DNA from: Parvibaculaceae bacterium
GTDB taxonomy: Bacteria; Pseudomonadota; Alphaproteobacteria; RS24; CBDDDD01
Length of the DNA stretch: 64,000 nucleotides
Assembly (NCBI GenBank): GCA_965226465.1
Contig: OZ245362.1
Coordinates: forward strand, 961,931 to 1,025,930
Direction: 5' to 3'
A program made the translations under genes and the position numbers. The stretch's first letter is position 1. The number at the start of each line of letters is the position of its first letter. The notes under the pieces are model-generated. The model was not told the DNA's origin. It did not search any database and saw nothing but the letters and a program-made list of their open reading frames with translations. Positions 2,961-55,428 of the stretch are shown here, one piece after another.

Positions 2961-3045
2961 TTCAACCCTTTCCTTCTCCCCCCCCTGTTTATATCCCTAA
3001 CTCCCCCCCACCGCCATATATTTTTACCCCTTTCCCCAAAAAATC

Positions 3046-3338
3046 CCCCCATAAATAAAAATGCGCCCCCAAAGGGACACTCCTACCCCCCCCCTATTTT
3101 TGATTGCATAAGCAATCAAAAAGGGTGGCGGTAGAGGGTAGTGTTTTCCTCAAACCTCCCCCCAACCTCAGAACAAGTTCCCCCCTATTTTTTAATAGGC
3201 ATTACATGCCTATTAAAAAAGGGTGAAAAAAGCTCCCCAGCTTTGCTGGGGTCTAGCTTTTTGCGCGCAGGAACACAAAGCATTCCGAGCGAAGGGGGGT
3301 TAGGGGGGTGTGGGCGGGGCATGCGCCTTCGGCGCATG
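3046..3338. repeat. Composite block of short hairpin repeats, collinear with a second block at 49439-49680
   Basis: The units, in order, are:
- cccataaataaaaatgcgcccccaaagggacactcctacccc (3048-3090)
- cccccctattttt-gattgcataagcaatc-aaaaaggg (3089-3125)
- cccccctattttttaataggcattacatgcctattaaaaaaggg (3180-3223)
- ggggggttaggggggtgtgggcgggg (3294-3319)
- GC hairpin gcatgcgccttcggcgcatg (3319-3338)
Near-identical strings recur in the same order at 49439-49680. Confidence 0.85.
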
Positions 3339-3399
3339 TTATATGAACTGCAAATTGCTGGGGTTTTGTTTTTCAATAGAATCTTATATACCTCTTAAG

Positions 3400-5202
3400 A
3401 TGGGAAAATCTAAAAAAATCAAACCATGGTCAATTTCTACTACAATGAGAAATCCTGCACGCGCTAGGAGTTTTCTACGTGTTTTAGCACAAATGGAAGG
3501 AAGAGAATGGGATAACGAAGCAAAAATGGAATTCCAAACACGCCTTATCCAGAATCGCTTATTTGGATATGGGAGTGCGCAATTTTATGACTCACTATCA
3601 GAGTCTGATAAAGCATTATTAGAGAATACTAAAAAAAAGATACCGCTTGCTGAGGCAAAGAGAATTTTTGTGGAAAAAGGATATAAAGACCCCCCAATGA
3701 GGGGAAGAACTTCTTATAAACCACTTGAAAAATTTGGTTTTGCCAATCATGCCATTGGTAAGAAAATTGCTATTACCTCATCAGGAATAGCTTTGCTGGA
3801 AGAAATCACAGAAATGAGTGAGCTTTTTACAAAGTCATTTATAAAATGGCAATTGCCCAATCCACAAGACAAAAGAGGCTTCCCTGCCAAGCATGGCTAT
3901 AACATTAAACCTTTCATAGGAGTTTTGCATTTGATTAGAGAGGTAAACCGCCTTTGTAAAATAAATAAAACAAAAGCAAAAGGAATCTCGCTATGGGAGT
4001 TTAAAGTATTTGGCGTGACTTTAATTAACTACCAAAAAATAAAAGATACCGCTAAAGAAATTATAAAATTTCGGGAAATGGTGAAGAAAAATTCTTCAAG
4101 AGATGACCAAATATATAATAATGATACTATTGAGAAATTACGCCCTGATTTTGATATAGACAATTTGCATGACTATGCTGACAATGCCTTAAGATATTTT
4201 AGAACAACCAAGCTTATTCACTTGAGGGGAGGCAATCGGTATATTGACCTTGAGCCTTTGAGGCGCATTGAAATAGATACTCTGCTTGATAGTCAAACAG
4301 GAGAGGCGAATATTCCAGCATCAGATTATGTTCAAGAAATAGGGGATGTAACAAAACCCATTCTACCTTGGGAAACAACAAAATATATTCAAAAAGCTGC
4401 AGAAATAGTTAAGAAATCAATAAATGAGCAGGGAGGCACAGTTCAACATGCTCCAGATTTTGATAACATATCTTTACAAGAACAAAAAGAATATCTTAAG
4501 CGGTTAAGAAAAGAAGCTATTATAGAGAAAAGAAAACAAGAAAAAACGGAGATGCAATCCCCTGAAAAAATTCAAGAAATTATCAAACAATTAGAAATCT
4601 TAGCAGATCGAAAAAAGGCGAAAGAAATTCCCAATAAGCCTGTCTTGTTAGAATATCTAATTAATTTGGGAATGGTCGCTTTAAATGATGCGAAAAAAAT
4701 AGAGCCTAACTATCCCGTCGGAGATGATAATACTCCCTCCTTCACTGCTCCAGCGGGAAAGCCAGACATTGAGTGTTATTATGAAAACTTTTCTCTCATT
4801 TGTGAAGTGACTATGCTAAGAACAAGAGACCAATGGTATAATGAAGGACAGCCTGTTCTACGACATTTGGATGATTTTGAAAAAGACAGAAAAGAGGATT
4901 GCTTTTGTCTATTTATTGCCCCTTACATTCATCAGGATACCGCCAATACCTTTTTATTCTCTGTAAAGCATTCTTATGAGAATAAAAAAAGATTGATAGT
5001 TCCCCTAACAATAAAAGAGTTTTCTGAGATTTTATCTTTTTGTGCAAATAGGCTTGAAGAAGGAAACCCTTTAAGCAGAAATGAATTGAAAGACATATTC
5101 TTGTCTATCTCTGCTGAAGCAGAAGCTTTAGAAAGCGGCAAGGATTGGTGCAATGCTGTGCCTAAATTACTCTCTCAATGGTTTCAGGAAGCATCAAGAT
5201 GA
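3400..5202 (+). CDS. Type IIS-like restriction endonuclease, AlwI/PleI/MlyI/Nt.BstNBI family (assigned from memory)
   Basis: The ORF spans 3310-5202. I prefer the ATG at 3400 (MGKSKKIKPW...) because the first 90 nt overlap the repeated intergenic element. Blocks FIKWQLPNP, NALRYFRTTKLIHLRG and the C-terminal PDIECYYENFSLICEVTM...CLFIAPYI...IVPLTIKEF resemble my recollection of Nt.BstNBI. The stop overlaps the next start (ATGA). The gene is visibly AT-rich. Confidence 0.65.
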   Translation: MGKSKKIKPWSISTTMRNPARARSFLRVLAQMEGREWDNEAKMEFQTRLIQNRLFGYGSAQFYDSLSESDKALLENTKKKIPLAEAKRIFVEKGYKDPPMRGRTSYKPLEKFGFANHAIGKKIAITSSGIALLEEITEMSELFTKSFIKWQLPNPQDKRGFPAKHGYNIKPFIGVLHLIREVNRLCKINKTKAKGISLWEFKVFGVTLINYQKIKDTAKEIIKFREMVKKNSSRDDQIYNNDTIEKLRPDFDIDNLHDYADNALRYFRTTKLIHLRGGNRYIDLEPLRRIEIDTLLDSQTGEANIPASDYVQEIGDVTKPILPWETTKYIQKAAEIVKKSINEQGGTVQHAPDFDNISLQEQKEYLKRLRKEAIIEKRKQEKTEMQSPEKIQEIIKQLEILADRKKAKEIPNKPVLLEYLINLGMVALNDAKKIEPNYPVGDDNTPSFTAPAGKPDIECYYENFSLICEVTMLRTRDQWYNEGQPVLRHLDDFEKDRKEDCFCLFIAPYIHQDTANTFLFSVKHSYENKKRLIVPLTIKEFSEILSFCANRLEEGNPLSRNELKDIFLSISAEAEALESGKDWCNAVPKLLSQWFQEASR

Positions 5203-5975
5203 AGCTGAATCATATATATACGGGCGACTGCACAAAAATACTCAAGCAACATATAAACTCAAAATCTGTTGATATGATTTATGCCGACCCTCCATATAAT
5301 GCATCTCATAAGAAGGTAACCCTCCCCAATAATAAAACAGGAGGAGCTTTTTATAAGGTGAATGAAGGTTGGGATAAGTTCACAGATGAGGAATATTGGA
5401 AATTTTCTGACGCTTGGATAGATGAGGCATATAGAGTTCTTAAAAAAAACGGAAGCCTATATGTTTCATGTAGCATGCATAATATTGGTGAAGTTCTCGT
5501 CATTGCCAAACAAAAGGGATTCCTTTTAAAAAACATTATTACTTGGCATAAAGCAAATGCGATGCCCAACATATCAAAAAGAACCTTTCAGCACTCAACA
5601 GAATATGTTTGCTGGTTTGTTGCGGGCGGAAAATGGATTTTTAATTATATGAACCTTAAAAAAATAAATGATGAAAAAACAAAAGATGGAAAAAGCAGGC
5701 AAATGCAAGATTTGATAAAAATGCCTGTTTTGCAAGGAAAAGAAAGATTAAAGGGGAAAGATGGAAGGGCATATCATCCGACACAAAAGCCTGAAAAATT
5801 GCTTGAAATCCTTATTACAGCATCAACAAATAAAGGGGATATTGTCCTAGACCCTTTTTTGGGAGTGGGAACAACTGCCGCAGTTGCTCATAAAATGAAA
5901 AGAAGGTGGATTGGAATTGAAAAAGAGGCTAGCTATGTAAGGGCTACAAAACAACGATTAAGGAGAATCACGTGA
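5199..5975 (+). CDS. DNA methyltransferase M1 (beta-class N6-adenine/N4-cytosine, DPPY type)
   Basis: Motif IV MIYADPPYN lies at the N-terminus. HPTQKPEKLLEILI and motif I DPFLGVGTT lie at the C-terminus. The start at 5199 forms an ATGA overlap with the endonuclease stop. Confidence 0.9.
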   Translation: MKLNHIYTGDCTKILKQHINSKSVDMIYADPPYNASHKKVTLPNNKTGGAFYKVNEGWDKFTDEEYWKFSDAWIDEAYRVLKKNGSLYVSCSMHNIGEVLVIAKQKGFLLKNIITWHKANAMPNISKRTFQHSTEYVCWFVAGGKWIFNYMNLKKINDEKTKDGKSRQMQDLIKMPVLQGKERLKGKDGRAYHPTQKPEKLLEILITASTNKGDIVLDPFLGVGTTAAVAHKMKRRWIGIEKEASYVRATKQRLRRIT

Positions 5976-6706
5976 ATAATATTTTGCAATGTATTGATTG
6001 TTTGGAAGGAATGAAAAATCTGCCAGAAAATTCCGTAGACCTTATCTTTGCCGACCCTCCATATAATTTGTCGGGAAAAAGCCATATGACCGTTAAAAGC
6101 GGGAAGAGAGCAACATGCGATAAGGGCAAGTGGGATATTATAGGTGATATTGATAAATTTAACGAACAATGGATAAAAGCATGTGTTCGGGTTTTAAAAG
6201 AAGAAGGAACAATTTGGATTTCTGGAACGCTACATAACCACCCATCTGTTGGTAAAATACTGAAAAAACTAGACCTTTGGATTATCAATGACATTATTTG
6301 GTATAAGCATAATGCGCCCCCTCTTGCTAGCTGCAATCGCTTTGTGCCATCCACAGAACTTATCTGGTTAGCAAGCAAAACCAAGAAATATTATTTTGAT
6401 TATGATGAAGCAAAAAGAATCAATCAGGGAAAGCAGATGCGTAATCTTTGGACTATCAATGCAATGCGCCATAAAACGGCACACCCGACTGAAAAACCAG
6501 AAACCCTACTTGACCGTATTATCACTATAGGCTCACAAAAAGGGGATACAATCCTAGACCCCTTTACAGGTTCCGGCACAACAGGTGTTGTGGCAAAAAG
6601 GCTTCAAAGAAACTTTATTGGTTTTGAGATTTCACCAGAATATTTCAATATTGCTAAAAATCGCATAGAGGCAGAAACCCTTCAGCCACAGCGTGATGCC
6701 GTCTAA
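5972..6706 (+). CDS. DNA methyltransferase M2 (beta-class, DPPY type)
   Basis: Motifs LIFADPPYNL, HPTEKPETLLDRII and DPFTGSGTT are present. The GTG start at 5972 overlaps the M1 stop (GTGA) and is preceded by AGGAGA. Confidence 0.9.
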   Translation: MNNILQCIDCLEGMKNLPENSVDLIFADPPYNLSGKSHMTVKSGKRATCDKGKWDIIGDIDKFNEQWIKACVRVLKEEGTIWISGTLHNHPSVGKILKKLDLWIINDIIWYKHNAPPLASCNRFVPSTELIWLASKTKKYYFDYDEAKRINQGKQMRNLWTINAMRHKTAHPTEKPETLLDRIITIGSQKGDTILDPFTGSGTTGVVAKRLQRNFIGFEISPEYFNIAKNRIEAETLQPQRDAV

Positions 6707-24612: not shown

Positions 24613-26031
24613 ATGAAAAAGCAGATGGATATTTTTTCCGATATGGCACTGGAGCGCAACCACGCCGAGCGCATCGCTATGGATGCCCTCACCCATAGCG
24701 AGGATGGCGAGCTATATATAGAACATAGTATCAGCGAGAGCTTCAGCTATGATGACGGACGCCTACGCTCCGCAAGCTACGACAAAAGCTATGGCTTCGG
24801 CTTGCGCGCCCTTATGGGCGAGGCAAGCGTCTATGCCCACTCAACCGATATGAGCCAAGCCTCCCTCCAGCGCGCCGCCACTATCGTAAAGAGCATTAAA
24901 GGCGGCAAAAGCGGCACTTGGAAGGATGACAGCCAAAGCACCCCCCGCACCCTATATGACAGCGAAAACCCGCTAGACGGCGAAGGCTTTTCCGACAAAG
25001 CCAAGCTATTGGCAGAGATAAACGCCTATGCCCGCCAATGCGACAATCGCGTGCGCCAAGTCAGCATAGCCCTATCAGGCGAATGGCAAGCGGTTTCCAT
25101 ATTGCGCCATAGCGGCGAATGGGTAGAGGATATCCGCCCGCTCGTGCGCCTGGATATCAGCATCATTGTCGGCGAGGGCAAAAAGCAGGAGCGCGGTCAC
25201 AGCGGCAGAGGCGGCAGAGCAGGATATCGCCGCTGGCTCACAGAAGAAAACTGGAAAAGCCAAGCAGACGAAGCACTGCGACAGGCACTAATAGCCCTAG
25301 ACGCCAAGCCCGCCCCCATGGGCGAGATGGACGTGGTATTAGGAGCAGGCTGGCCCGGCATCCTCCTCCATGAAGCAGTCGGACACGGGCTGGAAGGCGA
25401 CTTCAACCGCAAACAAAGCTCCGTCTTCACGGGCAAAATAGGCGAGCGCATCGCCAGCAAAGGCGTAAATGTCGTAGATGACGGCACGTTAGAAGGCAGA
25501 AGAGGCTCCCTCAATATAGACGATGAAGGCACAAGAACCGCCCGCAACATCCTCATAGAAGACGGCATCCTAAAGGGCTATATGCAAGACCGCCAAAACG
25601 CCCGCCTCATGGGCGCCCAACCCACAGGAAACGGCAGACGCGAGAGCTACGCCTATGCCCCCATGCCACGCATGACCAATACCTATATGCTAAACGGCGA
25701 CAAAGAACAGGCAGAAATAATCGCCAATGTCCAAGACGGCATTTACGCCGTCAGCTTCGGCGGCGGCGAAGTAGACATCACCAGCGGCAAGTTCGTCTTC
25801 AGCTGCACCGAAGCCTATCGCATAGAACACGGAAAAATCACCCACCCCATAAAAGGCGCCACCCTCATAGGCAACGGCGCCGACGCCCTAACCAAAATCA
25901 GCATGATAGCCAACAACATGAAACTAGACGAAGGCATAGGAACCTGCGGCAAAGACGGCCAAGGCGTCCCCGTAGGCGTAGGCCAACCCAGCATGCTATT
26001 AAACGGCTTAACGGTAGGCGGCACCGGCTAA
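24613..26031 (+). CDS. tldD: Metalloprotease TldD
   Basis: 472 aa with HEAVGHGLE and the C-terminal PmbA_TldD fold pattern. Confidence 0.95.
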   Translation: MKKQMDIFSDMALERNHAERIAMDALTHSEDGELYIEHSISESFSYDDGRLRSASYDKSYGFGLRALMGEASVYAHSTDMSQASLQRAATIVKSIKGGKSGTWKDDSQSTPRTLYDSENPLDGEGFSDKAKLLAEINAYARQCDNRVRQVSIALSGEWQAVSILRHSGEWVEDIRPLVRLDISIIVGEGKKQERGHSGRGGRAGYRRWLTEENWKSQADEALRQALIALDAKPAPMGEMDVVLGAGWPGILLHEAVGHGLEGDFNRKQSSVFTGKIGERIASKGVNVVDDGTLEGRRGSLNIDDEGTRTARNILIEDGILKGYMQDRQNARLMGAQPTGNGRRESYAYAPMPRMTNTYMLNGDKEQAEIIANVQDGIYAVSFGGGEVDITSGKFVFSCTEAYRIEHGKITHPIKGATLIGNGADALTKISMIANNMKLDEGIGTCGKDGQGVPVGVGQPSMLLNGLTVGGTG

Positions 26032-26202
26032 TAGCCTAACTCTTATAAAAAAGCGGTTTTTTGCCAAAAAAATCATATTTTCTTAACTTATCAACGCCAT
26101 AGAAGAATATGTTATATTTGCTATTATTTCATCACAATCTTTGATTATAGCTTGTCTGCATGAGTCTCAGAGTGCTATAAAATAGAAAAAGAGGAAAAAG
26201 AA

Positions 26203-26448
26203 ATGCTTAATGCAAAACCTACAGAATATGGCAATTTGTTTGAGCCTATGTTCAAAGATGTTGTCACGCTTGACCCAAGACGCAGTGAAGAGGTTTGGGA
26301 GAAATTAAGCACTGACACACAAATGCTGGAGATAGGTTCTATCATACCGCTTCTGACATTGGCATTTTATGATACCTTATGCGAAAGAAACCTGATTGAT
26401 GGCTCCGCCCCAAAAAACAAAAAAACAAAAATTGCCAAAAGCCGATAA
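26203..26448 (+). CDS. Hypothetical 81-aa ORF (possible N-terminal fragment of a split gene)
   Basis: AT-rich ORF preceded by agaggaaaaag. It ends inside a poly-A/C run where the next ORF begins in another frame. Confidence 0.35.
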   Translation: MLNAKPTEYGNLFEPMFKDVVTLDPRRSEEVWEKLSTDTQMLEIGSIIPLLTLAFYDTLCERNLIDGSAPKNKKTKIAKSR

Positions 26449-26872
26449 TAGCAACCGCAAAAATGATATTCTACCGTCGCAAGCTGATATGCCGCTTGTT
26501 GGGGGGGACTTAACCATTCAAGCCCTTATCCAGCACTTTCCTGATGATCCGCAAAAAACGCTGGATGCTTTGGAAAAGCATGACCCAGGTTTTACCAAGC
26601 GCATGATAAAGAAAAGTCAAGTCTTTCATGATAAAGGACGTGAGGTGCGTTTTGCTTTTGGAAAACGGCAAGCCTATTCTGGCTTGGCAGTACGCATTAT
26701 CGCTGCGTTGCTTCTATTTGGTGCTCTGTTCTACGTCATATATTTAGATAGAAGTCCTTTTTGGTGTTTAGGGCTGATTATATTCTTTGCCGTTTCACAA
26801 GGCGGTCCTGGCGACTGGTCAAGAATAATAGCCTCCGTTTTCAAAACAAAGAAAAAACCCTCAAAGAAATAA
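26396..26872 (+). CDS. Hypothetical membrane protein, DUF2335-like (weak)
   Basis: Two C-terminal TM helices (GLAVRIIAALLLFGALFYVIYL; WCLGLIIFFAVS) are preceded by LEKHDPGFTKRMI, reminiscent of DUF2335 proteins. The true start is uncertain. Confidence 0.45.
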   Translation: MMAPPQKTKKQKLPKADNSNRKNDILPSQADMPLVGGDLTIQALIQHFPDDPQKTLDALEKHDPGFTKRMIKKSQVFHDKGREVRFAFGKRQAYSGLAVRIIAALLLFGALFYVIYLDRSPFWCLGLIIFFAVSQGGPGDWSRIIASVFKTKKKPSKK

Positions 26873-26916
26873 TAGCCCTTTGGCTGTTTATATAAAACCC
26901 CTGCCTTCAAAAAAAC

Positions 26917-28209
26917 CTAAAGCCCATACTCCCGAAAAATAGGCAACACGCTTTCCCCCCACTCCCCATAATATTTTTCCAACAGCTTTTCAGAAAGCGT
27001 CTTACCCTCATCAATAATCCCCTCAAGCGGCGCAAGATAACCCTCCTCCCCCAGCCCCCTTTTCTGCAAGCCCCTTTTCGCAAGCCCGACCATCTCGCCA
27101 GCCAACGCCCCGACCATGCCCTGCAATTTCTGCGAAGACGCATCCCGCAACAACGCCGCCCGCTTCTCACCCCCCCACTCAGAGCACAACGCCCACGCCT
27201 CCTCCAAAATTTGCGGCTCATAAAGCAGCCCAACCCAAAGTGCGGGCAGCGCATTGACATATTTTTGCGGCACCATATCAGCCCCGCGCATTTCCAAAAA
27301 AGTCTTGAGCCGTATCTCAGGAAACAGGGTGGTCAAATGAATATCCCAATCGCCCATATCCGCATAAACGCCCTCCAAGCCGGGCAGTTTCCCCTCCATA
27401 AAATCAGCAAAAAACCACCCCGCTCCAGACAAAAACTCCCCATCCCGAATGACAAAATAAAGCGGTGCGCGCAACGCCCAATCAATATAGGAGGCAAACC
27501 CCGCCCCCTCATCAAAAATAAACGGCGATGCCCCCCCGCGCGCCCCATCCACATCCAGCCAGCAGCCCACCCGCTCCGAAACCTGTGCGCTCGGCGCCCC
27601 CTCATAAAACGGCGCATTAGCAAAAATCGTAGAAACAATCGGCTGCAAAGAAAGAGCCGTCCGCATTTTCAGCACCATATCCCCCTCACTTTCATAATCC
27701 AAATTGACCTGCACCGTGGCGGTACGATACATCATATCCAACCCCCTACCCCCCGTTTTCGGCATGATAGCGCGCATATATTCATATCGTTTTTTCGGCA
27801 TATGCGGCATATCGGACAGCCTCCAATGAGGCGCAAACCCAATAGGCAGAAACCCAATATCCAACGGCTCAGCAATTTTTTTCAGCGCAAGAATATGCTC
27901 ATCCAACCCCTTTTGCGTTTCATGAAGCGTCCCCAGCGGCGCACTGGAAAGCTCAAACTGCCCGCCCGGCTCAAGCGTGATAGTAGCACCACCCCTCGCA
28001 AGCGCAACAGTTTTCCCGCCCTCCTCTTGCCCCTTCCACCCCTCAGCCATAAAGCCCTCAAAGATACGGACAATATCCCCATACCCTATCGGCTTCAGCG
28101 TTTCTTTATGAAAGCCAAACTTCTCATGCTCCACCCCAATACGAAAATCCCGCCGCTTTTTGCAGCCCTTTTCCATCTGGGCGATGAGGTCATTTCTTTT
28201 CAGTTTCAT
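26917..28209 (-). CDS. gshA: Glutamate--cysteine ligase, GCS2 (plant/alphaproteobacterial) type
   Basis: 430 aa with GVEHEKFGF and ITLEPGGQFELSSAPL. Confidence 0.85.
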   Translation of the reverse strand: MKLKRNDLIAQMEKGCKKRRDFRIGVEHEKFGFHKETLKPIGYGDIVRIFEGFMAEGWKGQEEGGKTVALARGGATITLEPGGQFELSSAPLGTLHETQKGLDEHILALKKIAEPLDIGFLPIGFAPHWRLSDMPHMPKKRYEYMRAIMPKTGGRGLDMMYRTATVQVNLDYESEGDMVLKMRTALSLQPIVSTIFANAPFYEGAPSAQVSERVGCWLDVDGARGGASPFIFDEGAGFASYIDWALRAPLYFVIRDGEFLSGAGWFFADFMEGKLPGLEGVYADMGDWDIHLTTLFPEIRLKTFLEMRGADMVPQKYVNALPALWVGLLYEPQILEEAWALCSEWGGEKRAALLRDASSQKLQGMVGALAGEMVGLAKRGLQKRGLGEEGYLAPLEGIIDEGKTLSEKLLEKYYGEWGESVLPIFREYGL

Positions 28210-48037: not shown

Positions 48038-48618
48038 TGAGAATATTAGGCGGCGCATATAAAGGCAAACCCCTCACCGTGCCAAAAAACACCACAACCC
48101 GCCCAACAGCCGCAAAAATGCGCGAAGCCATTTTTGACATCATCCTAAACGCCAAAGCAATCAACCTTGAACCCCTCTCCATCCTTGACGGCTTTGCCGG
48201 CGCCGGTGCCATGGGACTGGAAGCCCTCTCCAGGGGCGCAAAAACATGCCTCTTCATAGAAAACGATAGAAGCGCCATCAAAGCCATCCAAAAAAACCAA
48301 GAGTCTCTCGGAATGACCCAAAAATCCCAAATCCTCCGCAAAGACATAACCCATCTCGGAAAGTTCTCCCCCCAAACCCCAACCGCAACCCCCTATGACA
48401 TCATCTTCCTAGACCCCCCCTACAACAAATCCCTAGGCGAAAAAGCAATAACCGCCCTAGCAAAAGGCAACTGGCTCTCCCCAAACGCCCTAATCTTCCT
48501 AGAAGAATCCCCCCAAACCCAAATAACCCTCCCCCCCAACACCCCCCTAACCCTCCAAGACCAAAGACAATACAGCAACACCCAACTTCTCCTCTTCCAA
48601 CCCACCCCCACAGACTAA
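48037..48618 (+). CDS. rsmD: 16S rRNA (guanine966-N2)-methyltransferase
   Basis: Begins MRILGGAYKGKPL and carries DGFAGAGAMGLEALSRGA and FLDPPY. ATG at 48037 overlaps the preceding stop. Confidence 0.85.
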   Translation: MRILGGAYKGKPLTVPKNTTTRPTAAKMREAIFDIILNAKAINLEPLSILDGFAGAGAMGLEALSRGAKTCLFIENDRSAIKAIQKNQESLGMTQKSQILRKDITHLGKFSPQTPTATPYDIIFLDPPYNKSLGEKAITALAKGNWLSPNALIFLEESPQTQITLPPNTPLTLQDQRQYSNTQLLLFQPTPTD

Positions 48619-48696: not shown

Positions 48697-49422
48697 ATGT
48701 TTACGCCAGAAGTTGCAAACAGGCTTGGCTCTTATGTCTATAGGCTGATTGATCCAAGAAATGGTCAAACATTTTATGTTGGTAAAGGCAAAGGAAATCG
48801 TGTTTTTTCTCACGCTAAGGGCGATATCGGAAAAGAGTCCGATGAGGTGAGCGACAAAATGAAACGAATCCAAGAGATTAAAAATGATGGTTTTGAAGTT
48901 TCGCATATTATTCATCGGCACGGCTTAGATGAAAAAACTGCTATTGAGGTAGAGGCGGCATTAATAGATGCCTATCCAGAAGTTACAAATAAAACCACAG
49001 GACATTATTCCAATGAGCGCGGCATTATGCACGCACAGCAAGTGGTTACTCAATACCAAGCAGAAGAGATACCCTTGTCCAAGCACAAAGTCCTCATGCT
49101 AAGCATTAATGAATCCGCTTCCGAAGCAAATGGTATATATGAAGCCACAAGATATGCTTGGAAGTTAGATGATAAAAGGGCTAAGGAAGCAGAGTTTATA
49201 TTGGCGTTGCAACAAGGTCTTGTCATAGGCGTGTTTATTGCAGAAGACTGGATGGAAGCTACACAGGAGAACTTTCCAGGAAGAGAAAGCATGCCAAAAA
49301 GATGGGGTTTCATCGGCAAAGAAGCAGATAAAGAGATACAAAATATCTACCTCAGAAAGAGATTGCCAGACGATATGAGAAAAAAAGGCGCCGCAAACCC
49401 CATTCGTTATTCATATAAATAA
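48697..49422 (+). CDS. GIY-YIG nuclease-domain protein with an uncharacterised C-terminal domain
   Basis: N-terminus SYVYRLIDPRNGQTFYVGKGKGNRVFSH fits a GIY-YIG variant. I do not recognise the C-terminal ~140 aa (ATRYAWKL...GLVIGVFIAEDW...NPIRYSY). Preceded by aggag. AT-rich. Confidence 0.6.
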   Translation: MFTPEVANRLGSYVYRLIDPRNGQTFYVGKGKGNRVFSHAKGDIGKESDEVSDKMKRIQEIKNDGFEVSHIIHRHGLDEKTAIEVEAALIDAYPEVTNKTTGHYSNERGIMHAQQVVTQYQAEEIPLSKHKVLMLSINESASEANGIYEATRYAWKLDDKRAKEAEFILALQQGLVIGVFIAEDWMEATQENFPGRESMPKRWGFIGKEADKEIQNIYLRKRLPDDMRKKGAANPIRYSYK

Positions 49423-49704: not shown

Positions 49705-49926
49705 CTATAAAAGGTCTTTAATCTCCAGCCCCAGCGCATCAGCGATTTTTGCGATATTATGCAGGGAAACATTTTTTTCACCCCGCTCAATAGACCCCAT
49801 ATAGGTACGATGTACCCCCACCTCATGGGCAAATGCTTCCTGAGAATATCCCTGCTTCTCCCTAAGACTGCGGACACGCTTGCCAAAGTCCTTGCTTACA
49901 TTTCGCAGTTTTTTCGCTGTTACCAT
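49705..49926 (-). CDS. XRE-family HTH transcriptional regulator
   Basis: 73 aa with the classic Cro/CI HTH: LREKQGYSQEAFAHEVGVHRTYMGSIERGEKNVSLHNIAKIADAL. Confidence 0.85.
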   Translation of the reverse strand: MVTAKKLRNVSKDFGKRVRSLREKQGYSQEAFAHEVGVHRTYMGSIERGEKNVSLHNIAKIADALGLEIKDLL

Positions 49927-50079: not shown

Positions 50080-50634
50080 ATGTTTTCCATTCGTATTTAT
50101 TTATTCGCCTGTCTTTTCAGCTTTTTCTCTGCCATCACTATGGCACCGGCAAAAGCGGATTTTTATTTTGGTGCCTCGCTACACCAAACTACATTGGAAG
50201 ATTATGAAGCAGAATATACCTTTGATGAAGATGATAGTTCTGCAGGTTTCGGGCTTCTTATCGGCATGAAGATTAACGAGAAATTTTCCGTAGAGTTTGC
50301 CTATTCTGATTATGGAGATTATGGCTTTTCTATTTCTGATTTAAATAATGAAACAGTAAAAGTATCTGCTTCCCATGATGCGCTTAGCTTGTCCTTAAAA
50401 GCAAATATCCTACAAAAAGATAGTCTTAATGCCTATTTCAAATTAGGGCTGGCACAATGGGACCATTCCGTAACAGCAGGGGGAGAGCGTGCCAGTGAGG
50501 ATGGCACGGATATTCTTGTAGGTTTGAGCATTGAGAAACCCATAAATGAGAAGACAGGTCTTCTTTTAGGATATGAATATGTTGACGATGCCGAATCTCA
50601 CACCTTTGGACTTTCCATTATATTCCGCAGATAA
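50080..50634 (+). CDS. Small outer-membrane beta-barrel protein (OmpA-like/OmpW-like 8-strand type)
   Basis: Signal peptide MFSIRIYLFACLFSFFSAITMAPAKA, alternating hydrophobic beta-strand pattern, and a C-terminal aromatic end (GLSIIFRR). Preceded by aagggggt. Confidence 0.65.
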   Translation: MFSIRIYLFACLFSFFSAITMAPAKADFYFGASLHQTTLEDYEAEYTFDEDDSSAGFGLLIGMKINEKFSVEFAYSDYGDYGFSISDLNNETVKVSASHDALSLSLKANILQKDSLNAYFKLGLAQWDHSVTAGGERASEDGTDILVGLSIEKPINEKTGLLLGYEYVDDAESHTFGLSIIFRR

Positions 50635-50665: not shown

Positions 50666-51259
50666 TTACCCTGCTGACATAATTCTCTTTTCTTCATCCG
50701 CAATTTTTGTTGTGGCTTTATTATAAAAATTAGATATGCGCTCCTTTAACATTTGCACTTTATGACGCAAGTCAATTTCTGCAGTAGCAGGCAGATCTCC
50801 GATTATATCTAGGACTGTGTCTTCAAACCGATCCAACTCATCTACTGAAAGAATAGTAACTGATTTATAGAAAGAAACTTTTTGCTTCAAATCTTCAAAA
50901 TAATCAGAAAAATCTATCTGGATATCCTCAATAAACTCAGGGAAAGATTCAGATTGAGCCTGACCTGATTTACTAATTTTCCGATTTATCCTTCTGTGTA
51001 TTTCATTAATTTTTTTAAGGTTATCCCGCATTGAATTCGCATAATCATCCTTAAATTGATTTAACTCCAAATTTTTTTTATGAAACCTTCTTCCTGCATA
51101 TAAATTATACACACTAAAGAAAAAATTTAATAAACCAAAAAACACTGCCACTGTGACGATCCAGGGTAAATCACCCTGAATGGTTTTATTCAACGAAATG
51201 TAGAAAACAATTGCAAGTGTGACAATCGGTACAATGAAAATAATGTTAAGAAATTTCAC
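50666..51259 (-). CDS. Hypothetical 2-TM membrane protein with a helical cytoplasmic tail (third gene of the operon)
   Basis: 197 aa. TM helices are FLNIIFIVPIVTLAIVFYISL and LPWIVTVAVFFGLLNFFFSVYNLY, followed by about 140 aa of charged, helical-looking sequence. It starts 3 nt after the upstream gene ends. Confidence 0.6.
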   Translation of the reverse strand: MKFLNIIFIVPIVTLAIVFYISLNKTIQGDLPWIVTVAVFFGLLNFFFSVYNLYAGRRFHKKNLELNQFKDDYANSMRDNLKKINEIHRRINRKISKSGQAQSESFPEFIEDIQIDFSDYFEDLKQKVSFYKSVTILSVDELDRFEDTVLDIIGDLPATAEIDLRHKVQMLKERISNFYNKATTKIADEEKRIMSAG

Positions 51260-51262
51260 TTT

Positions 51263-51571
51263 TCAATCCCACAAGCTAATAGCCAAATCAATATATCCAT
51301 CTATTCTGTCCATTATTGCCGGTGGAGCTTGAAAAATATATTTTTCTAGAAAAGCTCTTTTTCCACCACACTTTTTAATACTCTCAGAAAACAACCCTAA
51401 GAAAAATGAAGAGGAAAAAACAATAATATGATTTGGTATAATAACTTGCACTTCGTCTGGACTATTATCATATTTATCAATATTATAGTCTTTTCTGGTA
51501 GCCTCGCCCTTTGGCTTTCCAGACAACACACTAGCTTTACTTTTTATTACTATCTTAACACTATCCGCCAT
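51263..51571 (-). CDS. Small STAS-like (DUF4325-type) protein (second gene of the operon)
   Basis: 102 aa. The core EVQVIIPNHIIVFSSSFFLGLFSESIKK...YIFQAPPAIMDRI resembles the STAS-like partners found beside GHKL ATP-binding proteins. It overlaps the upstream gene by 11 nt. Assignment is from memory only. Confidence 0.5.
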   Translation of the reverse strand: MADSVKIVIKSKASVLSGKPKGEATRKDYNIDKYDNSPDEVQVIIPNHIIVFSSSFFLGLFSESIKKCGGKRAFLEKYIFQAPPAIMDRIDGYIDLAISLWD

Positions 51572-52979
51572 TTTTGCGCTCCATAGAATTATTGTTTAGT
51601 GCAAACCTTATTGATATAATGGTGCCAGGAAATCTAATATCTGTATCAAAAACATATTGCTTATCTGGAGCAATTTCAGGGTCATTTTCTGTATTAAAAT
51701 ATTGGCTCATTTTACCAGCCTTTTTGCCATCCACTTTTTTTCCGTTATGATACTTATCCTTAAGCATTATGCAAGAATTACCAGATATAATTGTAATTCT
51801 TGGTTTTGTTATAGAGTTTATATCTCCCAATTGGCTAGAAAAATTTGTCATTTGCATCATTCCAACTCCACCTTGAGATTCCCCCATGCGGCTTGTTATC
51901 CCATCCTGCAATGCAAATACTGTGGCTAACGTATCTTTAGAATGTGTTTTTGAGATATGTTTCTTACAGTATTTTTCTGTCATGTCTTTTATTTTTCCGC
52001 CTGCATCTAACAGGCTTTCAGCTATTGTACGCCCCAAACTGATAATAGACAAATGACAAAGATATTCATCTCCTCGCTTCGCCAAAAAGCCAGTAATATA
52101 CCAACCTCCATCATTTTCCTTAACAGTGCTGTGCCTTTGTGCGTTATCAAGAATCTCTGCTACTACACTGCCTAGCCAACTTTTTCCGCTACCAGTAAGT
52201 TTATAAGGGCTTGTAGTTTTCCCTAACCATTGATCAATAGCTTCTATAAGATTTTGAACAACTTTTTCCTGTTTTTGCCTTGCCTCAACTAACGAACCAT
52301 CTGTACGAGAGTGAGAATCTCTACTCTGCAACTTAAATGCCCAAACATCATCTCCCTTTAGCGTATCACTTTGCATACGCAAAAATTCCTTTAACTTTGT
52401 TGCTTCAATGACTTTCAACACAGGCCTCCTTATTTCCCCTCCTTGCATAAAATTCAACATTTTCTGCCTCATAACTCCCAAAACAAGATAAGGACCAACA
52501 TCGTATATATAATAATCCTCAAAGCTTACTCTTGCACTCAGCACCTCTAACTCAAGCTGTGCTAATCCCTTAAGCTGCTGAAGTGTCTCCCTCGGTTTAT
52601 CCAGAAAAGAAAACTCTTTAAGGCTTATTTCCTTTTTTTCTGTGCGTCCTTTACGCTTTCTCCATTGCTTTTTTCTGTCAGATATAAAAGCATCTAAAAT
52701 TTCTGATTCTTGAAATACAAGTTCCCTCTCTGGAGGAAAAAGAGGCTTATTATAGGGGTGAACAATTCTCTTAAGCCTTCTTCGCAAATTATTGGCATGA
52801 ACCTTGCTATGTCCATTTTCTATTGCCCTGTCATAAACATATTTCCGTAAATTACGAAATTCATGAGGACTCAGCTCTTGCAACATCTCTCTATCAGAAA
52901 GTTCAGATATACTAAGTGATTGCAGGTGTTCTGCTAATAAAGGTGATTGCTTCTTTTTATAATTAAATCTATCTGCCAT
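51561..52979 (-). CDS. GHKL (Bergerat-fold) ATPase/kinase-like protein with an unknown ~260-aa N-terminal domain (first gene of the operon)
   Basis: 472 aa. It carries N-box VVAEILDNAQRH (nt 52131-52166), G1-like SIISLGRTI, G2-like GESQGGVGMMQM and terminal strand FPGTIISIRF. I do not recognise the basic N-terminal half. Confidence 0.6.
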   Translation of the reverse strand: MADRFNYKKKQSPLLAEHLQSLSISELSDREMLQELSPHEFRNLRKYVYDRAIENGHSKVHANNLRRRLKRIVHPYNKPLFPPERELVFQESEILDAFISDRKKQWRKRKGRTEKKEISLKEFSFLDKPRETLQQLKGLAQLELEVLSARVSFEDYYIYDVGPYLVLGVMRQKMLNFMQGGEIRRPVLKVIEATKLKEFLRMQSDTLKGDDVWAFKLQSRDSHSRTDGSLVEARQKQEKVVQNLIEAIDQWLGKTTSPYKLTGSGKSWLGSVVAEILDNAQRHSTVKENDGGWYITGFLAKRGDEYLCHLSIISLGRTIAESLLDAGGKIKDMTEKYCKKHISKTHSKDTLATVFALQDGITSRMGESQGGVGMMQMTNFSSQLGDINSITKPRITIISGNSCIMLKDKYHNGKKVDGKKAGKMSQYFNTENDPEIAPDKQYVFDTDIRFPGTIISIRFALNNNSMERKNGG

Positions 52980-53004
52980 AGCTTATTCTTAATATTACTA
53001 AAAT

Positions 53005-53040
53005 CAAAAAAGAGATATGCGCATAAGCGCACTACCCCCT
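53005..53040 (-). terminator. Minus-strand intrinsic-terminator-like hairpin upstream of the GHKL gene; a member of the repeated atgcgc...gcgcact family
   Basis: The plus strand reads aaaaaagagatATGCGCataaGCGCActaccccc. On the minus strand the hairpin is followed by a T-rich run. Confidence 0.45.
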
Positions 53041-53150
53041 TCTCCGTTACAAGTAAAGTGATTCGCATATATAAATCATATCTTAGACATATTTTCCTGT
53101 TGATAACTTTTCCCTATAGGGGGAGCCGTCTTCTCCCCCACCCCCAATCC

Positions 53151-53186
53151 AAAAAAAAGCCTCCCCCGCCGAAGCAGAGGAGGCTT
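53151..53186 (-). terminator. Minus-strand intrinsic terminator
   Basis: The plus strand reads aaaaaaaAGCCTCCcccgccgaagcagaGGAGGCTt. On the minus strand an 8-bp GC-rich stem is followed by T8. Confidence 0.6.
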
Positions 53187-53220
53187 AGGGTCTAAATGTC
53201 CCATAAGAAATCACAGTATA

Positions 53221-53860
53221 CAACAAACCACCCCCAAACACAAATCTCAAAAACCACCCCCCACCCCCTCCTCAATCCCCCCGCTCTCCCTTCCCCCTCT
53301 TAATCTCCCCCCCTCCCCCTCTCCCCTCTCACTCCCACCCCTCCTTTTTCCCCTACTCCCCAAAAAACCCCCCTCCTTCCTCCCAACTCCTCCCCCGCTC
53401 CCCCCTCTCAATCCCCCCGCTCTCTCCGCCACTCCCATCCCCCCTTTTTCGCCCACCCCCCTTATTTCTCCTCCCCCTCCTCACCCCTCAAAACCCCAAA
53501 TCTCCCCTTTTCCTCTCCCCCTCCTCCCAAAAAATCCCCCTCGCCCCTCTTAAATCTCCCCCACCCCCCCAATTCTCCCGGCTCCGCCTCCCCAATTCCC
53601 CCGTCCCCGCGCGCCCTTTTCGCCCCTTCCCCCTTCTTTCTCCAATTCCCCCGCACCCACTCACCCTTTTTGCCCCTCCCGCACCCCCTTTTCGCCCTCC
53701 CCCTTCTTTCTCCCCCAAAATCCCTACCCCCCCTTCCTCTCCCCCCCTCAAAAACCCCCCTTCCTCGCCCCTCTCAATACCGCCCGCTCCCCCACTCCAC
53801 TTCCCCCGCGCCCGCACCCTCTCTTTTTTCACCCCTCCACATTTTTTATTCCTCAAAAAA
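53221..53860. repeat. ~640-bp strand-pure polypyrimidine (C/T-rich) low-complexity tract with degenerate internal repeats
   Basis: By manual count there are only about 24 G in 53221-53880, mostly in CG context. Internal repeats:
- ctcaatccccccgctct at 53271 and 53407, with a variant at 53773
- cccttttcgcccc(t)tcccccttctttctcc at 53614 and 53685
- aattcccccg at 53594 and 53644
- ctcttaa(a)tctccccc near 53297 and 53547. Confidence 0.9.
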
Positions 53861-53862
53861 AC

Positions 53863-53990
53863 ACAAAATCTTCATATTTCATGAAATTTATCTCTTTTTT
53901 ATGAAGTTTTATTAAATTTTCACTCATTTCCATTTCATATTATTCATATTTTATGAATTATACTTCATATTTCATGAACTATATGAACAT
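53863..53990. promoter_or_regulatory. AT-rich block with a repeated TTCATGAA-type palindrome and direct repeats; candidate operator/promoter array
   Basis: The 16-bp direct repeat cttcatatttcatgaa occurs at 53870-53885 and 53963-53978. A perfect palindrome atttcatgaaat lies at about 53877-53888. Further (t)tatgaa(n)t cores lie near 53900, 53952 and 53983. Confidence 0.45.
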
Positions 53991-54060
53991 ATATCCACAT
54001 CCTTCACACAACAAAACCTCTCTTGACATGAACTCAAAAAAAAGCTATTTTCCATTTATT

Positions 54061-54303
54061 ATGTTACAAACCTCGTCAGAAGTGATAGATGCGCTGGGCG
54101 GCACCCAGAAAGTAGCGGAAATGCTAGGCGTTGGCTCGTCTGCGGTTTCCAATTACCGCAAGCTCGGCTTTCCCCGCCGTACTCATTACACATTGGCAAA
54201 GGCGTGCCAGATAGCCAGCTTGCGCGTATCGGAGCAGCTTTTCGGCGCAAAACCGCAGATTTCCGCCCGCGCGCGCGGCACCACCAGCCTCGCCATAGAG
54301 GAT
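54061..54303 (+). CDS. Cro/YdaS-like HTH segment, in frame with and not separated by a stop from the hisZ core
   Basis: MLQTSSEVIDALGGTQKVAEMLGVGSSAVSNYRKLGFPRRTHYTLAKACQIASLRVSEQLF matches the ..GG...vA..LGVs.sAVS.w...g.P pattern of small Cro-like regulators. The ORF 53953-55428 is continuous. Confidence 0.4.
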
Positions 54304-55428
54304 ATGACCGGTCAGCTCGCCCAAGACATGCGGATAGGCAGCATATTTGATGCGGCGGGTTATGAGCGCATAGAGACGCCGATATTGCAGCCCGCCGAGC
54401 CATTTCTAAACCGCCTCGGCGAGACGATGCGGCGGCGCATGTATCTCTTCACCGACCCCGCCGGCGAAGCGCTTTGCCTGCGCCCCGACTTGACCGTGCC
54501 GACCTGCCGCTATTACCTCGCCCAATCCGACGCGGGCGAGGCGCGCCACTACCGCTATCAGGGCACGGCGTTTCGCTATCGCGGCAGCGGCACGGGCGAG
54601 GGCGAGGAGTTCACGCAGGCTGGCATTGAAAACATTGGCGGCGCCAACCCTGAGATAGAGGACGCCGAAGTTTTGGCGCTCACCGTAAACGCCGTCCACG
54701 CTGTCGGCGTTCAGGATTACACCCTGTTGCTGGGCGATATCGGGCTTTTCACGGCGCTCATTGACAGCCTGCCTTTGGCGGAAAGCTGGCGTTTTCGGCT
54801 CAAGCAGCGCTTTTCGCAAGCCGCATTATTTTCCAAGCTTCTGCAAGAAGGCAGCCGCGAAAATGGCAATGATGAGAGCGAGAGCGGGGATATTGTATCC
54901 GCTCTTTCCGATATGGATGAGCAAAATGCCCAGGCTCTCATTGCGGGCATATTGCAAATGGCGGGACTTGTTCCCGGTAGCGGCAGAGATATTCAGCATA
55001 CTGCGCAACGGTTTCTGGCACGCGCCCGCGATAAGGCGGATATTGCCCTTTCCAAAGAAGCGCTTGCCACCATAGAGGCTTTTCTCGCCATTGAGGTGCC
55101 AGCAGAAAAAGCAATGGATGAGCTTCGCGCGCTGGGAATGCCTACTGACAGCGCTTTTGGAAGCGCACTCTCCTCTATGGCACAGCGATTTGACGCCCTG
55201 GAAGGGCGCAATGTCAGCCTAGAAAATGCACGCTTCTCAGCACAAAGCGGACAGAAATTTGCCTATTATACCGGTTTCCTCTTTGAACTGAATATAAATG
55301 GAAAAAAAATTGGCGGCGGCGGTCGCTATGATAAATTATTAAAAAGCTTAGGAAGCGATAAAGATATTCCCGCCATTGGCGGCGCATTGTCTTTAGAAAG
55401 ACTATATGAGGCAGTCGGCAATGCGTAA
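54304..55428 (+). CDS. hisZ: ATP phosphoribosyltransferase regulatory subunit (HisRS paralogue); conservative core from ATG 54304
   Basis: It has a class II aaRS-like core (GYERIETPILQPAEPFL, LRPDLTVP, YRYQGTAFRY, GGGGRYD) but no anticodon-binding domain. Its stop overlaps the hisG start. Confidence 0.8.
   Translation: MTGQLAQDMRIGSIFDAAGYERIETPILQPAEPFLNRLGETMRRRMYLFTDPAGEALCLRPDLTVPTCRYYLAQSDAGEARHYRYQGTAFRYRGSGTGEGEEFTQAGIENIGGANPEIEDAEVLALTVNAVHAVGVQDYTLLLGDIGLFTALIDSLPLAESWRFRLKQRFSQAALFSKLLQEGSRENGNDESESGDIVSALSDMDEQNAQALIAGILQMAGLVPGSGRDIQHTAQRFLARARDKADIALSKEALATIEAFLAIEVPAEKAMDELRALGMPTDSAFGSALSSMAQRFDALEGRNVSLENARFSAQSGQKFAYYTGFLFELNINGKKIGGGGRYDKLLKSLGSDKDIPAIGGALSLERLYEAVGNA

Follow-up and report, generated by a model that had tools for sequence, protein, structure and literature searches.

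Introduction

The closest described counterparts of the locus reported here are the bacterial kinase–STAS systems CapKS and VapKSC (Chambers et al., EMBO J 2026, PMC13373217). CapK, which is composed of a helix-turn-helix (HTH), a STAS and a GHKL domain, is switched on by single-stranded DNA (ssDNA) and phosphorylates the repressor CapS, consisting of a STAS and a winged HTH domain, at Ser54; the N218A exchange in CapK abolishes signalling, and its residue W68 stacks onto the ssDNA (PMC13373217). The capKS genes often lie next to restriction-modification (R-M) systems and precede variable immune operons (PMC13373217). The vapKSC operon encodes a kinase with STAS and GHKL domains, a DUF4325-type STAS antitoxin of 116 residues with a conserved Ser48, and a PIN toxin; it shields Escherichia coli from a phage, for which D28 of VapC, S48 of VapS and F54 of VapK are needed (PMC13373217). 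Chambers et al. argued for a modularity of the kinase–STAS switch; no transmembrane or membrane effector variant is mentioned in their paper, and our literature search on DUF4325 or STAS in defence returned nothing beyond this work of the Corbett laboratory (PMC13373217). Here we describe an operon of three genes in a 64,000-nucleotide (nt) stretch of DNA, hereafter the window, from a Parvibaculaceae bacterium (assembly GCA_965226465.1, contig OZ245362.1, positions 961,931 to 1,025,930), which encodes a predicted GHKL-type serine kinase (gene 1, K), a STAS-like protein (gene 2, S) and a putative membrane-anchored protein (gene 3, X). By analogy to VapKSC, we read this triad as a toxin-antitoxin or abortive-infection module under the control of a kinase, with a membrane protein in the place of the PIN nuclease, an assignment to which we give an even chance of being correct.

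Organization and conservation of the triad

The three open reading frames (ORFs) are arranged on the minus strand as given in a preliminary description of the locus, with an overlap of 11 nt between genes 1 and 2 (51561-51571) and a gap of 3 nt between genes 2 and 3 (51260-51262); a GGAG motif is placed 7 nt 5' of the ATG of gene 2, within the 3' end of gene 1. A survey with a 27-sequence alignment retrieved 58 loci in reference genomes and two from metagenomes, in which the gene-1 homologue is followed by an ORF of 94–117 residues, usually overlapping the gene-1 stop by 4–14 nt, and then by an ORF of ca. 130–280 residues. The second ORF is homologous to gene 2 in 56 of 59 loci when searched by phmmer with the window protein, and in 58 of 59 when searched with the family profile, and 52 of 53 candidates for the third ORF match the gene-3 family profile; loci without a match to gene 2 or gene 3 are contig ends or frameshifted copies. 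Since some 60 other loci contain homologues of all three genes in this order, the triad, as judged from sequence, is real far beyond chance, and the expectation that it would prove to be a conserved unit is borne out. Genes 1 to 3 are passed on together as one translationally coupled unit, which is found on plasmids, at prophage ends and in defence islands. Most hosts belong to the Alphaproteobacteria, with scattered occurrences in Bacteroidota, Opitutaceae, Gammaproteobacteria and low-GC lineages, including distant low-GC genomes and gammaproteobacterial plasmids.

Genes 2 and 3 of the window share one reading frame, with the sequence TGA-AAA followed by the GTG start (51257-51265). A fusion of both proteins by stop-codon read-through was considered and rejected; it is probably not a family trait, because frames or overlaps differ at other loci.

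The kinase

The AlphaFold2 (AF2) model of gene 1 (predicted local distance difference test, pLDDT, 88.5; predicted template-modelling score, pTM, 0.83) consists of three parts, formed by helices (residues 15-105), an α/β domain (113-220) and an α/β sandwich (263-461). Superposition of this model onto the PDB by Foldseek revealed SpoIIAB or UsfX anti-sigma serine kinases as all nine top matches, with probabilities of 0.99-1.0 for the top three, declining to 0.25 at the ninth, and target TM-scores of 0.34-0.69; the E-values are only about 1e-2 because the whole 472-residue model served as query. On the basis of the primary structure, gene 1 has no match in Pfam, NCBIfam or PADLOC, and a PDB sequence-profile search yielded noise only. 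A word-indexed search collected 115 homologous clusters, none of them with a Pfam domain, and an exhaustive profile search 1,424, 1,107 and 892 representatives of 50%-identity clusters at E<=1e-3, E<=1e-10 and E<=1e-30, respectively.

The relationship to the described systems emerges from profile comparisons with VapK and CapK, whose sequences, together with those of VapS and CapS, were taken from the supplementary files of PMC13373217. The full gene-1 family profile aligns with VapK over 175 columns (hhalign, E 8.3e-5), and the GHKL sub-profile with the VapK C-terminal domain over 180 columns (E 3.4e-6) and with CapK (E 2.1e-4). The signature motifs of the GHKL domain are the N-box E275/N279/H283, G316 of the G1 box, Q358-D-G, the ATP-lid G371xG373 and G452-T453. 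Among 52 aligned family members, on which all conservation values for gene 1 are based, no variation is seen at E275, N279, G316, G371, G373 and G452, and hardly any at H283 (51/52) and T453 (49/52). All eight residues align with their counterparts in VapK and CapK, so that the catalytic motifs of the homologous GHKL domains are in register; the ExxxN of the N-box (E275/N279) corresponds to E156/N160 in VapK and E214/N218 in CapK, and the ATP-lid GxG (G371/G373) to G237/G239 and G307/G309. N279, the predicted Mg-ATP-coordinating residue, is thereby equivalent to the CapK residue N218. Sequence and model show that gene 1 is composed of several domains, and that its C-terminal half represents a predicted GHKL serine kinase of the SpoIIAB/VapK/CapK type with intact N-box and ATP lid. 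This agrees with the preliminary description, which had placed a Bergerat/GHKL domain here and had picked the four motifs that are the conserved ones.

The middle domain has a topology of the type β-α-β-α-β-α…β in the AF2 model and carries the motif F123-S124-(F/L/I)125…P129, in which F123 is invariant (52/52) and S124 (48/52) and P129 (49/52) are highly conserved. In a MAFFT alignment, which misaligned the N-terminal domain of VapK, W68 of CapK falls on position 125, and the collinearity of gene 1 and CapK extends from the β-strand of W68 (F123-S-F125) through the GHKL domain; the spacing between the aromatic residue and the N-box Asn is 150 residues in CapK and 154-156 in the gene-1 family. 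The loop after the N-box usually contains Arg or Lys (positions 301-302), and K237 and K239 of CapK sit in the corresponding loop. The N-terminal ca. 95 residues are strongly basic (median net charge +14); this region is absent from VapK and not alignable to the HTH domain of CapK, which is undetected in gene 1. Taken from sequence comparison, the invariant F123, the placement of CapK W68 at position 125, the basic loop and the N-terminal charge are possible features for sensing ssDNA.

The STAS-like protein

The AF2 model of gene 2 (pLDDT 95.4) displays the topology β-β-α-β-α-β-α, with helix 2 spanning residues 54-68. Position 55, at the N-terminus of this helix, is a serine in 61 of 64 family members, and position 53 is Ser or Thr in 56 of 64. 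According to sequence and model, S55 corresponds to the site of phosphorylation in SpoIIAA, CapS and VapS, and we regard it as the predicted phospho-acceptor, with S/T53 as an alternative. The Ser-Ser-Phe phosphorylation motif of CapS recurs as S54-S55-F56 in gene 2, and an hhalign alignment, although non-significant, puts S55 onto S54 of CapS.

The family assignment is less straightforward. Weak matches to PF14213 (DUF4325, STAS-like) were found in 10 of 47 gene-2 orthologues, with a best E of 4.4e-4, and this is the only recurrent family; a single orthologue that was scored by itself attained 16.6 bits, compared to a Pfam gathering threshold of 23 bits. UniRef names several orthologues DUF4325. 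VapS, for comparison, is a clear member of DUF4325 (E 2.7e-17). Gene 2 itself has no match in Pfam, NCBIfam or PADLOC, a PDB sequence-profile search was empty, and a single-sequence database search returned only the protein itself; its relatives came from the alignment-based search. No winged-helix or other HTH domain was detected by Pfam in gene 2 or the scanned orthologues. Based on sequence and model, gene 2 is likely a divergent STAS/DUF4325-like protein and not a threshold member of PF14213; the DUF4325-type affiliation proposed before is retained in this divergent sense, on account of the STAS topology, the weak matches and the UniRef names.

The membrane protein

Gene 3 contains, as noticed earlier, two N-terminal hydrophobic segments and a charged tail. 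By hydropathy, the segments cover residues 3-21 and 33-51. The second segment is followed by RRFHKK and a charged helical region of ca. 140 residues, and aligns with the single conserved transmembrane helix of the orthologues; a counterpart of the first segment is found in some of them only. The general pattern, present in 42 of 50 orthologues, consists of an N-terminal transmembrane-like segment, a net positive charge and 140-170 soluble residues, and the versions from low-GC genomes and plasmids have a signal-like or first transmembrane segment plus a second one. Gene 3 is the fastest-evolving member of the triad, with a mean column identity of 13%; a family profile built without the window protein nevertheless recognizes it with 53.6 bits (E 1.5e-18). 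Neither gene 3 nor any of 49 orthologues gave a match to a PIN or other nuclease, recurrent Pfam or PADLOC families are absent among the 50 orthologues, the curated profiles of Pfam, NCBIfam and PADLOC yielded nothing above noise with gene 3, and the PDB profile matches are confined to generic coiled-coil or helical-bundle chains. We predict from the sequences that gene 3 is composed of a membrane anchor and a conserved cytoplasmic helical domain.

Genomic context of the triad

In 37 genome loci, phage integrase is the commonest Pfam family near the triad, accounting for 8 of the 148 nearest ORFs, a qualitative tally that stands without a background control. Other neighbouring families are Arm-DNA-binding domains, terminases, a P2 capsid protein, TrwB, ParB, D12 methyltransferases and AAA_21, and PADLOC recorded single matches to PD-Lambda-5_B, PD-T4-6 and PDC-M72A. 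The triad abuts a prophage integrase in Gluconobacter oxydans, is flanked by two integrases on a Pantoea plasmid, adjoins parAB on a Vibrio rarus plasmid and forms the main cargo of the Providencia vermicola plasmid NZ_CP145939.1 (L064; 6,778 base pairs (bp), MOBQ). Further copies directly follow prophage holin-endolysin cassettes (L067 and L070) or a Type I R-M system (L068), and one directly precedes GmrSD and a Gp49/HTH pair (L069). The anticipated proximity to R-M and prophage genes is seen, within the limits of a qualitative tally. On NZ_CP145939.1, the kinase gene is intact in the DNA and has no feature in the plasmid gene table; annotation-based surveys would therefore miss the triad.

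An association with MADS was also considered and rejected. The PADLOC matches of neighbouring genes to mad3/mad8 (L043:10067-13006, L049:10265-13180, L009, L020 and L028) are UvrA-like or ABC-transporter ATPases; the mad3/mad8 models cross-match generic ABC ATPases, and false MADS calls are therefore possible.

The island and other features of the window

The triad region has a GC content of 32-38% compared to 50-57% in the flanks, in accordance with the AT-rich island beside a GIY-YIG and an XRE gene that had been recognized before. Since the ORFs of the flanks read by eye as housekeeping genes (mutL, a deaminase, rluB-like and rsmD-like on the left, hisZ/hisG-like on the right), the AT-rich block has the appearance of an island inserted between them. 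Over its full length, the GIY-YIG protein matches PD-T4-3, a single-gene defence system of PADLOC (E 9e-104), and the island therefore already contains one recognized defence gene. The XRE protein of 73 residues best matches R-M control-protein models (E 8e-26); no restriction or methylase gene stands beside it. The XRE gene is divergent from an AT-rich gene for an OmpA-like outer-membrane β-barrel, which in turn is convergent with the triad.

Upstream of the operon, both hairpins of the preliminary description were found again, one as a strong intrinsic-terminator-like structure and the other as a small palindrome (Table 1). The former, being terminator-like, would insulate the operon against transcription from upstream, and the latter could be an operator or a weak hairpin. 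Between this terminator and the hisZ-like gene extends a tract of ca. 600 nt (53240-53850) that is extremely C-rich on the plus strand (GC skew -0.745 over 53001-54000), is built from degenerate CCCCCT/CCCCAA-like repeats and contains no credible ORF; its G-rich minus strand could form G-quadruplexes. A second, smaller C-rich patch lies at 48371-48562. The first ca. 100 residues of the long hisZ-like ORF resemble an HTH of the Cro/YdaS type (GGTQKVAEMLGVGSSAVSNYRK) and may represent a separate small regulator gene joined in frame by the ORF caller. Low-GC patches (0.34-0.41, against a background of ca. 50% GC) at 3000-6000 and 26000-27000 may be further horizontally acquired islands.

Table 1. 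Positions of the triad, its predicted functional parts and neighbouring elements in the window
Feature	Position	Strand	Remarks
GIY-YIG gene	48697-49422	+	PD-T4-3 match
XRE gene	49705-49926	-	R-M control-protein-like
OmpA-like β-barrel gene	50080-50634	+	AT-rich
Gene 3 (X), 197 residues	50666..51259	-	GTG start; putative membrane-anchored protein, predicted effector/toxin
Gene 3, hydrophobic segment 2 (residues 33-54)	51098..51163	-	Kyte-Doolittle mean 1.95; followed by RRFHKK
Gene 3, hydrophobic segment 1 (residues 3-21)	51197..51253	-	Kyte-Doolittle 19-residue mean 2.65
Gene 2 (S), 102 residues	51263..51571	-	ATG start; STAS-like, divergent DUF4325; predicted kinase substrate
Ser55 codon of gene 2	51407..51409	-	predicted phospho-acceptor at the N-terminus of helix 2; S/T53 as alternative
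Gene 1 (K), 472 residues	51561..52979	-	ATG start; predicted SpoIIAB/VapK/CapK-class serine kinase
Gene 1, residues 236-472	51564..52274	-	GHKL (Bergerat) kinase domain; from hhalign and column compositions
Asn279 codon of gene 1	52143..52145	-	predicted Mg-ATP-coordinating N-box residue; invariant 52/52; equivalent to CapK N218
Gene 1, residues 108-235	52275..52658	-	α/β domain, collinear with CapK STAS; from AF2 topology and MAFFT
Gene 1, residues 1-107	52659..52979	-	family-specific, strongly basic helical region; from AF2 helices
Small palindrome	53017..53032	-	between promoter-like site and gene-1 start
Promoter-like site TCAACA-17-TATGAT	53075..53103	-	5' of gene 1; consensus scan 9/12, pattern match only
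Strong intrinsic-terminator-like hairpin	53157..53186	-	5' of operon; 13-bp stem, 8 GC pairs, T-run
Long hisZ-like ORF	53953-55428	+	Cro/YdaS-like start

Discussion

The triad shares with VapKSC the gene order of a kinase, a small STAS protein and a third protein, the homologous GHKL domains, a partner of ca. 100-116 residues in which a conserved Ser precedes an aromatic pair and for which, in the case of gene 2, a STAS topology is predicted, and the presence of defence genes nearby. It differs in that the third gene encodes a membrane-anchored helical protein instead of a PIN nuclease, that gene 1 is 170 residues longer than VapK and has a very basic N-terminal region, and that the distribution is mainly alphaproteobacterial. 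Compared to CapKS, the kinases are likewise homologous, whereas CapS is a DNA-binding repressor with a C-terminal winged helix (Pfam HTH_24) that gene 2 lacks, and the variable immune operons after capKS are replaced by one fixed, tightly coupled family. SpoIIAB/SpoIIAA and RsbW/RsbV provide the best structural matches of the kinase domain and the same pairing of a kinase with a STAS partner carrying a phosphorylatable Ser at the start of helix 2. However, gene 1 is three times larger than these kinases, with two extra domains, and the triad occurs on mobile or defence islands instead of sporulation or stress operons. In membrane-effector abortive-infection systems, such as the CBASS or Thoeris variants with transmembrane effectors or the RexAB type, a cytoplasmic sensor is coupled to a small membrane protein. 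The triad would follow this general sensor-to-membrane-protein logic without homology; gene 3 is unlike any effector family of PADLOC or Pfam, and the signal would be protein phosphorylation and not a nucleotide second messenger.

In analogy to VapKSC, we propose a first scenario for the function of the triad. In resting cells, unphosphorylated S would be bound to the cytoplasmic domain of X and keep it inactive. An infection or DNA-damage signal, which may be single-stranded nucleic acid, would activate K, and S would become phosphorylated on Ser55; the signal might be read by the invariant motif F123-S-F125, by the basic loop that follows the N-box and by the highly basic N-terminus. Phosphorylated S would then release X, which might act at the membrane by oligomerisation, depolarisation or permeabilisation and stop growth or kill the cell before new phages are produced. 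Carried by a small plasmid, this K-S-X circuit would serve as an addiction module. A defence function of the triad is suggested by its genomic context. The more far-reaching proposal, that it represents a widespread anti-phage or addiction system in which a nucleic-acid-sensing GHKL kinase with a non-canonical nucleotide pocket sets free a new family of membrane-disrupting effectors by phosphorylating a STAS antitoxin, is tentative, and we rate its chance as somewhat below even. In this case, the kinase–STAS switch would be a general trigger of bacterial immunity with exchangeable effectors.

Several observations weigh against the assignment as a VapKSC-like module. In GHKL enzymes, the Asp of the G1 box contacts the adenine. 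This residue (position 314) is replaced throughout the gene-1 family by Asn (33/52) or Ser (19/52), and the second Gly of the box by Thr, Ser or Pro, whereas VapK and CapK retain the Asp; by sequence, the G1 box is recognizable but departs from the canonical DxGxG, so that the binding of ATP or the activity of the kinase could be altered. No STAS domain, including those of VapK and CapK, resembles the middle domain of gene 1 at the profile level (hhalign), and the interpretation of this domain as STAS, based on modelled topology and collinearity, is tentative. For gene 2 of the window, no DUF4325 match was found even at E<=1, and the profile comparison with VapS and CapS (E 0.055-0.45), or with VapS alone (E 0.055-0.3), was non-significant. 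A Foldseek search with the gene-2 model gave no significant PDB match, 2kln being the best STAS entry (E 0.5), in a library that seemingly lacked the CapS and VapS structures (9Z71, 9Z7O). Gene 3 has no relatives of known function and could have a sensor or anchor role instead. Finally, some triad loci lie among ordinary housekeeping neighbours, e.g. L001, and no gene-1 homologue was found in a phage genome collection.

The preliminary description had compared gene 2 to the STAS-like partner in partner switching of the RsbW/RsbV type. In its classical form, the kinase would hold the cytoplasmic domain of X in the place of a sigma factor, unphosphorylated STAS protein would displace it and phosphorylation would reset the switch; instead of killing, a stress or envelope response could result. 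The anti-sigma factors found as best structural matches of gene 1 work by this logic, the STAS-like partner is encoded alongside, and the loci among housekeeping genes would be compatible with it. However, no sigma factor was seen by eye among the window ORFs at 46-58 kb, as already stated before, and neither a PP2C/SpoIIE-type phosphatase nor a sigma factor is among the recurrent neighbour families in the 37 loci. Because both are missing from the operon, partner switching fits less well than phosphorylation of a substrate that releases an effector. The patchy, mobile-linked distribution is also unlike that of a housekeeping stress pathway, and the closest relatives, VapK and CapK, phosphorylate their substrate on a signal and do not sequester a factor (PMC13373217). 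Taken together, we consider partner switching unlikely. The kinase might alternatively be the toxin itself, as in HipA, and phosphorylate essential host or phage proteins; S would then be a decoy or antitoxin in the active site and X an accessory that localises the complex or senses envelope events. Three-part kinase toxins exist, e.g. HipBST, the occurrence of the triad on small plasmids resembles that of addiction modules, and the kinase is its largest and best-conserved part while gene 3 diverges fastest. But gene 3 is strictly retained even in very distant lineages, which points to a core working part, and the change in the G1 box speaks against high and promiscuous kinase activity. To our knowledge, GHKL kinases of the anti-sigma type (SpoIIAB, RsbW) phosphorylate only their cognate STAS partner. 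The same restriction applies to CapK and VapK (PMC13373217), and a toxic kinase appears quite improbable.

The homology of gene 1 to CapK, with a collinear STAS-GHKL portion, raises the question whether K and S merely form a transcriptional controller of the CapKS type, which regulates downstream or neighbouring immune genes upon DNA damage. The location of the operon beside PD-T4-3 and an R-M-type control protein would suit such a role, as capKS is often near R-M systems (PMC13373217). Yet gene 2, with only 102 residues, lacks the winged helix that defines CapS, and the third gene always belongs to one family and is adjacent or overlapping, unlike the variable operons following capKS, so that we find this explanation hardly credible. 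The triad might also have an unrelated function, for instance in envelope or cell-cycle signalling, and simply reside often on mobile DNA without a role in conflict. In line with this, no triad protein is represented in the PADLOC models, several loci have ordinary neighbours and the function of gene 3 is wholly unassigned; with regard to PADLOC, where we had looked for an existing classification of the triad, VapK and VapS are absent from PADLOC-DB v2.0.0 as well. Against it stand the classic defence slots in which the triad is found (prophage lysis cassettes, Type I R-M, GmrSD, PD-T4-3, between integrases), its patchy cross-phylum distribution and the homology to a kinase family with demonstrated anti-phage function, and we judge the absence of any conflict role to be rather unlikely.

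The preliminary description had further regarded the module as undescribed. This is correct for the membrane-anchored third protein and for the kinase family, and not for the class, which is represented by VapKSC and CapKS (PMC13373217); since both the kinase–STAS principle and a three-gene operon of kinase, STAS protein and toxin are published, the triad is not categorically new. New are the gene-3 family without known relatives, a large unannotated kinase family with a basic N-terminus and a substituted G1 box, and the mainly alphaproteobacterial distribution.

The release of a toxin by a GHKL kinase via a STAS protein was shown only in 2026 and with one kind of effector, VapKSC's PIN nuclease (PMC13373217). 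If our assignment is true, the triad would be the first concrete case of a kinase–STAS switch with a different, membrane-acting output. The kinase family, comprising ca. 1,000 clusters at 50% identity, is without annotation, Pfam model or defence-database entry. Confirmation would provide a new effector family and would enable annotation pipelines to name three groups of hypothetical proteins that occur on plasmids, in prophages and in defence islands, and it would test the generality of ssDNA sensing in kinases whose G1 box is changed and whose basic N-terminal domain is new.

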